In this document: one piece after another, positions 1,252 to 4,711 of the stretch | How positions within the stretch are numbered: position 1 is the first letter of the stretch | How the letters are laid out: the number at the start of each line of letters is the position of its first letter | IMG/VR virus record: IMGVR_UViG_2740892229_000002 | Strand: one strand, 5' to 3' | Length of the DNA: 5,503 bases | DNA from: a virus | Taxonomy: Duplodnaviria; Heunggongvirae; Uroviricota; Caudoviricetes | Made by a program: the position numbers and the translations under genes | Notes under the pieces: generated by a model | Seen by the model: only the letters and a program-made list of their open reading frames with translations | Database searches by the model: none | What the model was told of the DNA's origin: nothing

Positions 1252-1385
1252 GAAGCGGTGTCCTATAAGGGGATGTATGGCGATACGGCGATCGTCGTGT
1301 ATTCCGGACAGTACGTGGAAAACGACGTCAAAAAGAACTTCCTGCCGGACAACACGATGGTGCTGGGGAACACTCAGGCACGCGG
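1252..1385 (+). CDS. E: Major capsid protein E, internal fragment (block 4)
   Basis: EAVSYKGMYGDTAIVVYSGQYVENDVKKNFLPDNTMVLGNTQAR; overlaps end of blocks 2/3 and start of block 5 with substitutions. Confidence 0.88.
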
Positions 1386-1395
1386 NNNNNNNNNN

Positions 1396-1713
1396 AAAGC
1401 GGTGTCCTATAAGGGAATGTATGGCGATGTGGCCATCGTCGTGTATTCCGGACAGTACGTGGAAAACGGCGTCAAAAAGAACTTCCTGCCGGACAACACG
1501 ATGGTGCTGGGGAACACTCAGGCACGCGGTCTGCGTACCTATGGCTGTATTCAGGATGCGGACGCACAGCGCGAAGGCATTAACGCCTCTGCCCGTTACC
1601 CGAAAAACTGGGTGACCACCGGCGATCCGGCGCGTGAGTTCACCATGATTCAGTCAGCACCGCTGATGCTGCTGGCTGATCCTGATGAGTTCGTTTCCGT
1701 ACAACTGGCGTAA
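1396..1713 (+). CDS. E: Major capsid protein E, C-terminal fragment with native stop (TAA 1711-1713)
   Basis: KAVSYKGMYGDVAIVVYSGQYVENGVKKNFLPDNTMVLGNTQARGLRTYGCIQDADAQREGINASARYPKNWVTTGDPAREFTMIQSAPLMLLADPDEFVSVQLA*. Confidence 0.93.
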   Translation, partial: KAVSYKGMYGDVAIVVYSGQYVENGVKKNFLPDNTMVLGNTQARGLRTYGCIQDADAQREGINASARYPKNWVTTGDPAREFTMIQSAPLMLLADPDEFVSVQLA

Positions 1714-2175: not shown

Positions 2176-2186
2176 NNNNNNNNNNT

Positions 2187-2352
2187 AACACTCATGCACG
2201 CGGTCTGCGCACCTATGGCTGTATTCAGGATGCGGATGCATTGAGTGAGGGTATTAATGCGTCTCCCCGTTATCCGAAAAACTGGAAGACATCCGGCGAT
2301 CCGGCGCGTGAGTTCACCATGATTCAGTCAGCACCGCTGATGCTGCTGGCTG
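2187..2352 (+). CDS. E: Major capsid protein E, C-terminal-region fragment, divergent allele (block 6)
   Basis: NTHARGLRTYGCIQDADALSEGINASPRYPKNWKTSGDPAREFTMIQSAPLMLLA; differs from blocks 5/7 at a clustered patch. Confidence 0.85.
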
Positions 2353-2363
2353 NNNNNNNNNNC

Positions 2364-2540
2364 ACCTATGGCTGCATTCAGGATGCGGACGCACAGCGCG
2401 AAGGTATTAACGCCTCTGCCCGCTACCCGAAAAACTGGGTGACCACCGGCGATCCGGCGCGTGAGTTCACCATGATTCAGTCAGCACCGCTGATGCTGCT
2501 GGCTGATCCTGATGAGTTCGTGTCCGTTCAACTGGCGTAA
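2364..2540 (+). CDS. E: Major capsid protein E, C-terminal fragment with stop (TAA 2538-2540)
   Basis: TYGCIQDADAQREGINASARYPKNWVTTGDPAREFTMIQSAPLMLLADPDEFVSVQLA*. Confidence 0.92.
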   Translation, partial: TYGCIQDADAQREGINASARYPKNWVTTGDPAREFTMIQSAPLMLLADPDEFVSVQLA

Positions 2541-2610: not shown

Positions 2611-2621
2611 NNNNNNNNNNT

Positions 2622-2717
2622 ACCGGCGATCCGGCGCGAGAGTTCACCATGATTCAGTCAGCACCGCTGATGCTGCTGGCTGACCCTGATGAGTTCGTGT
2701 CTGTACAACTGGCGTAA
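2622..2717 (+). CDS. E: Major capsid protein E, extreme C-terminal fragment with stop (TAA 2715-2717)
   Basis: TGDPAREFTMIQSAPLMLLADPDEFVSVQLA*. Confidence 0.9.
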   Translation, partial: TGDPAREFTMIQSAPLMLLADPDEFVSVQLA

Positions 2718-2873: not shown

Positions 2874-3143
2874 TCAGGTGCTGGGTGAGCAACTGAACCG
2901 TGATGTCAGCCTGACGGGGACGAAAGAAGAACTGGCACTCCGTGTGGCAGAGCTGGAAGAGGAGCTTGATGACACGGATGACGCTGCTGGTCAGGACACA
3001 TCTGTCAGCCCGGAAAATGCGCTGACCGGACATGAAAATGAGGTTGTATCAGCGCAGCCGGATACCGTGACTGATACGGCTGATCTGGTCACGGTTGTGG
3101 CACTGGTGACGCTGCATACTGATGCACTTCACGCCACGCGGGA
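2874..3143 (+). CDS. FI: FI internal fragment
   Basis: LGEQLNRDVSLTGTKEELALRVAELEEELDDTDDAAGQDTSVSPENALTGHENEVVSAQPDTVTDTADLVTVVALVTLHTDALHATR; T->P and A->D relative to the complete copy. Confidence 0.88.
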
Positions 3144-3154
3144 NNNNNNNNNNG

Positions 3155-3214
3155 GCTGTGGCATTTGTGCTGCCGGGAACGGCGTTTCGTGTCTCTGCCG
3201 GTGTGGCAGCCTAA
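3155..3214 (+). CDS. FI: FI C-terminal fragment carrying premature stop (TAA 3212-3214 where other copies have GAA); original stop would be 3245-3247
   Basis: AVAFVLPGTAFRVSAGVAA* versus ...AGVAAEMTERGLARMQ* in the copies at 2040-2150 and 3284-3379. Confidence 0.75.
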   Translation, partial: AVAFVLPGTAFRVSAGVAA

Positions 3215-3272: not shown

Positions 3273-3283
3273 NNNNNNNNNNT

Positions 3284-3935: not shown

Positions 3936-3947
3936 NNNNNNNNNNGA

Positions 3948-4265: not shown

Positions 4266-4277
4266 ANNNNNNNNNNC

Positions 4278-4700: not shown

Positions 4701-4711
4701 NNNNNNNNNNT

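Follow-up and report, generated by a model that had tools for sequence, protein, structure and literature searches.

A short divergent tract in the capsid gene E of lambda-like prophages, probably imported by homeologous recombination

Organization of the window and identity of the gene

The stretch of DNA analysed here (the window, 5503 nt) parses at its spacers, which are runs of exactly 10 N, into 14 blocks. The blocks tile the lambda head-tail order E-FI-FII-Z-U-V with overlapping alternative versions, and each segment is present in two to four of them. When collapsed, the whole window corresponds to a single interval of ~2.8 kb of a lambda-like prophage found in complete E. coli genomes. 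The first base of every E-region block from 2 to 8 is exactly one at which it departs from some overlapping block. The overlap of blocks 2 and 3 with blocks 4 and 5 is 60 nt long, and block 6, whose first base is itself a variant (E nt 825, G to T), ends exactly 60 nt past its last private variant. These variant starts and 60-nt overlaps and tails lead us to infer that the assembly collapsed several lambda-like prophage copies and that the blocks are its unitig-like pieces (k≈61). The "copies" compared below are therefore alternative assembly paths, and the identity of their flanks, including the right flank of block 6, arises partly by construction. Block 6 would be separate and short because it is the piece spanning the bases that set its prophage copy apart.

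Three further features were observed. In block 10, TAA stands at window 3212-3214 where blocks 5 and 11 have GAA, which gives one copy of FI a premature stop 11 codons before the gene end and suggests a decaying prophage copy. Positions 1-1256 of L067 (IMG/VR UViG_2579778674_000002) hold E nt 79-665 followed by nt 358-1026 as overlapping tandem stretches, which looks like a repeat-collapse assembly artefact of the same kind as the window. Block 4 (window 1252-1385) is a fragment of another E allele with K237E, V248T, and G259D (GEAVSYKGMYGDTAIVVYSGQYVENDVKKNF), and it matches the cluster represented by P0010.

Table 1. Coordinates of the capsid gene features, spacers, and additional divergent islands
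Feature	Position in the window	Strand	Remarks
Block 6, fragment of lambda-type major capsid gene E, patch-carrying allele	2186..2352	+	E nt 825-991, codons 275-331
Divergent patch core	2237..2292	+	E nt 876-931; encodes L294, S295, P302, K309, S311
Minimal patch unit of all full carriers	2241-2292	+	E nt 880-931
Q278H substitution	2195..2195	+	E nt 834, G to T
Right flank, 60 nt, same as in blocks 5 and 7	2293..2352	+	Encodes conserved GDPAREFTMIQSAPLMLLA
Lambda-type counterpart of the patch core, block 5	1563..1618	+	E nt 876-931
Lambda-type counterpart of the patch core, block 7	2390..2445	+	E nt 876-931
Block 8, further copy of the E 3' end from nt 930	2621..2717	+	Lambda-type at nt 931
N runs	272-281, 757-766, 1242-1251, 1386-1395, 2176-2185, 2353-2362, 2611-2620		
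N runs, continued	2864-2873, 3144-3153, 3273-3282, 3936-3945, 4267-4276, 4701-4710		
Second cluster in E	~183-211 (block 1), ~461-489 (block 2), ~946-974 (block 3)		E nt 473-501
Central FI island	~1880-2000 (block 5), ~2975-3090 (block 9)		Also L001 6401-6500

Block 6 differs from block 5 at 18 positions, three in the 51 nt on the left (2186, 2195, and 2210), 15 in the 56-nt core, and none in the 60 nt on the right. From block 7 it differs at 16 positions, of which 15 again lie in the core and none in the right 60 nt. The earlier note had described a dense patch in one copy of E, and this description is correct. Of the flanks that it called identical or near-identical, the right one is identical, and the left one carries one to three differences, including those at nt 825 and in codon 278. 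The note had also placed the start of the block at 2187, which is one base late. As it had claimed, translation of the patch changes AQREGINASARYPKNWVTTGDP to ALSEGINASPRYPKNWKTSGDP, that is, Q294L, R295S, A302P, V309K, and T311S.

Every feature tested places the gene in the lambda gpE family (PF03864). The PF03864 (Phage_cap_E) assignment was precomputed for all homologues, and the full-length protein matches PDB 7VI9 over residues 1-341 (phmmer E=9e-222). An AlphaFold model (pTM 0.70) superimposes on 7SJ5 with a TM score of 0.82 (E=6e-51), and other HK97-fold capsids match as well. Lambda head-gene synteny (C/Nu3, D, E, FI, FII, Z, U, V) is present in the annotations of E. coli 2013C-4991, phage ev099, and lambda, and the order D-E-FI-FII-Z-U-V in the patch carriers is the same as that in lambda. 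Lambda gpE itself (HK97 fold; PDB 7VI9, 7VIK, 7SJ5, and 8K39) has 341 amino acids and is 96-97% identical over its full length. The two proteins differ at eleven amino acids, five of which lie within residues 294-311 around W308.

Distribution of the allele and divergence of the patch

All 167 nt of block 6 are found with 100% identity inside an intact 1026-nt gene annotated as "major capsid protein" in six closed E. coli genomes, one of which is 2013C-4991. The exact match is to six genomes because block 6 lacks the A that is common at E nt 948. Among the 3218 matching records, 424 are at least 99% identical (nearly all at 99.4%) and 88 are at 95-99%. The phages ev099, 2G7b, PhiR63_1, and IdasGreatGrand are 99.4% identical over the block. 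These four phages and ~500 E. coli prophages carry a patch identical to that of block 6. In contrast to the invariant patch, the backgrounds outside it differ among the carriers, by 4-30 substitutions. An assembly or sequencing artefact, such as a chimeric or mis-assembled short contig, might be suspected from the chain of short unitig-like pieces with 10-N joins and from the identical 60-nt right flank, which is an assembly by-product. However, the presence of the same 167 nt in intact capsid genes of closed genomes and isolated phages refutes the artefact reading, whose probability is close to nil. Block 6 is a real allele; the patch matches the capsid alleles of hundreds of complete genomes and of isolated phages.

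The clustering that the earlier note saw in a fragment persists when a full-length copy is aligned. Between the E gene of 2013C-4991 and lambda E there are 33 differences in 1026 nt, 16 of which fall within the 71 nt from 861 to 931 (p<1e-5 by scan-statistic permutation). When synonymous sites are considered alone, 8 of 19 differences lie in the same 71 nt (p≈8e-4). By the Nei-Gojobori method, dS and dN against lambda are 1.31 and 0.11, respectively, in the patch codons (287-311), compared with 0.051 and 0.008 for all other codons. The patch dS is thus ~25-fold higher, with a dN/dS of ≈0.08. In whole-gene comparisons between lambda E and Leclercia- or Klebsiella-type prophage E, dS is 1.0-1.35 and dN is 0.07-0.08. 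Because the patch dS lies within this inter-genus range and dN/dS is low, the patch has the divergence of an orthologue from a different genus that evolved under purifying selection. The base composition is also shifted. The block-6 allele has a GC3 of 0.44 within the patch but 0.67 outside it, whereas the corresponding values in lambda are 0.68 for the patch and 0.69 for the gene.

These values bear on the possibility that the five amino-acid changes arose in situ, without import, through diversifying (positive) selection acting on an exposed capsid loop. The substituted residues do occupy the most variable columns of the family, with entropy ranks of 3, 12, 15, 24, and 50 among 341 positions in a 37-sequence alignment. 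In addition, gpE reportedly triggers the Avs8 defence system (PMC12236752), which senses it and could in principle favour change. However, Avs8 is reported to recognize the fold largely independently of sequence (PMC12236752), and a link between Avs8 and the patch is speculation. Furthermore, the patch dN/dS is far from exceeding 1, GC3 is shifted, and a ~25-fold elevation of dS is beyond the reach of selection on the protein. We therefore regard positive selection in situ as very unlikely.

Localized hypermutation, by either an error-prone repair tract or a diversity-generating retroelement, would also yield dense and contiguous changes, and the lambda base affected is C in 10 of the 16 changes. 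On the other hand, 10 of the 16 changes (62%) are synonymous, compared with 22% expected from unfiltered mutation (p≈5e-4), and the invariant residues within the tract (G297, R303, P305, and W308) are all kept. Nor are the changes adenine-specific, as those of a diversity-generating retroelement are (A is affected in 3 of 16), and more than 100 alleles have the tract in the same unchanged form. An origin by hypermutation consequently appears extremely unlikely.

The 12-kb head-tail region has a background divergence of ~2%, interrupted by a few short islands of the same kind in FI, V/G, and H. A second cluster was observed in the full-length 2013C-4991 allele at E nt 473-501, with six substitutions in 29 nt relative to lambda E. 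There, the lambda residues EE158-159 are replaced by AA in blocks 1 and 2 and by VA in block 3. The central part of FI is hyper-divergent from lambda, with 14 differences in 100 nt and a 3-nt indel, and V/G and H of the same prophages contain islands like this one (Table 1).

Recombinant backgrounds, polarity, and the search for a donor

The comparison covered 103 complete E alleles, drawn from genomes, phages, IMG/VR, and metagenomes; the patch motif was the basis for selecting all except three of them. Outside the patch, the number of substitutions separating the carriers from lambda ranges from 4 to above 60. Two near-isogenic pairs isolate the patch from its background. Lambda and L024 differ at seven positions outside the patch and 16 inside it (binomial p ~4e-14), and CT30 and L133 differ at five outside and 16 inside (binomial p ~4e-15). 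Partial tracts were also found. The tract of L077 is confined to the left half (nt 876-904), nt 925-931 are missing from that of L057, and L006, L020, and L066, which have Q278, lack the patch states at nt 861 and 876. The varied backgrounds and half-tracts indicate that the tract recombines both as a unit and in sub-units. P0134, a frameshifted protein fragment from Escherichia sp., has K309 together with T311.

The upstream Q-to-H change noted earlier is present in block 6 as Q278H, but it is genetically separable from the patch. Haplotype tables contain all four combinations of the two, with H278 accompanying the lambda-type patch in CT30 and PhiR70_1, and the patch accompanying Q278 in 2017-02-1CC and 16 other alleles. 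Therefore, Q278H does not belong to the patch. A far more extensive intragenic mosaic of the same gene was observed in L037 4144-5196 (IMG/VR UViG_2874956758_000002), which encodes a chimeric capsid protein. Its N-terminal ~215 residues come from a very remote PF03864 lineage, with an nt mismatch of ~50% to lambda, and the block-6 allele makes up the gene from ~E nt 650 on.

The three nearest outgroups (~80% nt identity) have the lambda state at 10-12 of the 16 diagnostic sites and the block-6 state at 3-5. In a survey of protein motifs, the lambda-type motif AQREGINASARYPKNWV was common to the whole sister clade. From this agreement, the block-6 state appears to be the foreign one, and we designate the block-6 segment as the probable imported state, with modest residual doubt. 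The doubt concerns a reversed polarity, in which the lambda-type segment would have been imported and the block-6 segment would be original to this E lineage. Several outgroups have the block-6 base at sites 876, 885, and 904, and P0074 agrees with block 6 at 8 of the 16 sites and with lambda at 6. In addition to the nearest outgroups and the sister clade, the composition argues against this reversal because GC3 is atypical in the patch of block 6 and not in that of lambda. The lambda type is, moreover, the majority patch state in E. coli. We thus consider the reversed polarity improbable.

The earlier note proposed BLASTN as a way to find the donor lineage, but this approach did not yield one. 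Neither megablast nor blastn with the block or the patch detected a donor among 50,697 phages, and the patch in GenBank phages either matches at 100% or reaches no more than 84% identity. When the exact peptide was back-translated and scanned against 185,579 species genomes (GTDB representatives), only E. coli and Shigella flexneri matched. With a looser peptide motif, IMG/VR gave 81 loci, all of which are lambda-type E, including truncated or chimeric remnants, and no donor. A general metagenome scan gave 48 loci, likewise without a donor; all of them have lambda-type flanks, with 0-3 mismatches per 100 nt upstream and 1-4 per 95 nt downstream relative to lambda. No metagenome contig encoding the peptide with a non-GGC codon for Gly312 was matched. 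In the complete E. coli genomes, the identity bands and six sampled alleles were examined for this purpose. A protein search with the C-terminal 72 amino acids returned short fragments only. The homologues with the nearest motifs, P0074 (ALREGINASPRYPKNW), P0081 (ALSDGITSSPRYPKNW), and P0094 (RTSGDP), are just 60-76% identical in the patch DNA. The low GC3 is also found in P0074-like genes, which hints that the donor was a relative of that kind. Because no donor was found in five large collections, we take the donor lineage to be unsampled, and its absence points to unsampled diversity in the E family.

Probable recombination and the loop at W308

We consider it highly probable that this widespread E allele had a tract of ~52-71 nt (nt 861/880-931) replaced from a much more diverged gene of the E family. 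The patch is almost certainly an import by homeologous recombination, although the event and the recombinase are inferred and were not observed directly. The earlier note had attributed the patch to gene-conversion-like exchange and not to drift. The full-length clustering, the raised dS, the GC3 shift, the varied backgrounds, and the half-patch recombinants all agree with that attribution. The features expected of a mosaic tract that were found are clustering beyond chance, a foreign level of dS, and the same tract in different backgrounds. A donor lineage holding the tract within a uniformly divergent gene was not found in the collections searched.

Homeologous recombination or gene conversion would have occurred between co-infecting or co-resident lambdoid phages and prophages. 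The simplest route would be a double crossover or a short conversion tract between a lambda-type E and a diverged E. The crossovers may have lain in the strongly conserved bracketing sequence, which encodes RTYGCIQD upstream and GDPAREFTMIQSAPLMLL downstream. Upstream of the tract, R283, Y285, G286, and D290 are invariant or nearly so in the family, as are G312, D313, P314, E317, T319, M320, Q322, and others downstream, where the outgroup identity climbs to 84-86%. The tract would later have spread among lambda-type prophage E genes by ordinary homologous recombination. Lambda Red efficiently recombines 22%-diverged sequences (PMC2327257), and an exact pairing of ~23-27 bp suffices for Red-beta and other phage recombinases of the Rad52 type (PMC3945230).

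The tract resembles the homeologous mosaics described in lambdoid phages (Martinsohn et al. 2008, PMC2327257; De Paepe et al. 2014, PMC3945230), in which small fragments are exchanged; the exchange of small gene fragments is commoner than that of whole modules (PMC3945230). As in those mosaics, a short intragenic tract that is ~22-27% diverged lies inside ~98% identical sequence with conserved bounds, and it is carried by lambda-like phages and prophages, which either encode Rad52-type recombinases or encounter them. The mosaics in those papers have a median length of ~400-500 bp, whereas the block-6 tract has only ~52-71 nt. They are also defined by a matching partner, whereas none was found for this tract in the collections searched.

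In the AlphaFold model, residues 290-320 have pLDDT values of 41-63 and are predicted to form a short helix (291-295) followed by a long loop. The five substitutions are set among the anchors G297, R303, P305, W308, and G312-D313-P314. As part of the best explanation, the patch would be a tolerated variant, filtered by purifying selection, of the loop adjoining W308. This invariant tryptophan, whose codon in block 6 is at window 2283-2285, is central within the tract and adjoins V309K. PDB 7SJ5 is the W308A form of lambda gpE, which is described as soluble and assembly-deficient. Because W308 is critical for assembly and lies inside the tract, the patch may be at an inter-subunit contact, which is at least as likely as a free surface. 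No residue-level description of gpE contacts was found in the open-access literature. Co-variation of gpD with the patch was ruled out by the identical gpD proteins of ev099, which has the patch, and CT30, which does not.

A reading that goes further is that the 52-nt tract is an exchangeable "cassette" polymorphism at the W308 loop, present in ~15% of the lambda-type prophages of E. coli, maintained by balancing selection, and derived from a source lineage absent from current databases. We regard it as quite unlikely. If it were true, the tract might limit the co-assembly of capsid proteins from co-resident lambda-like prophages, or it might change what a capsid-sensing defence system recognizes.

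As a lambdoid mosaic of homeologous recombination, the patch is typical except for its unusually short length. The phenomenon is textbook, and the allele is already known from public genome and phage records; the finding has little significance beyond bookkeeping. It does provide a clean and quantifiable small case of homeologous exchange within a gene, here a structural gene of the phage that has been studied best, and short alternative blocks in draft E. coli assemblies with multiple prophages can be read as real alleles. For capsid specialists, the imported tract brackets the assembly-critical W308.
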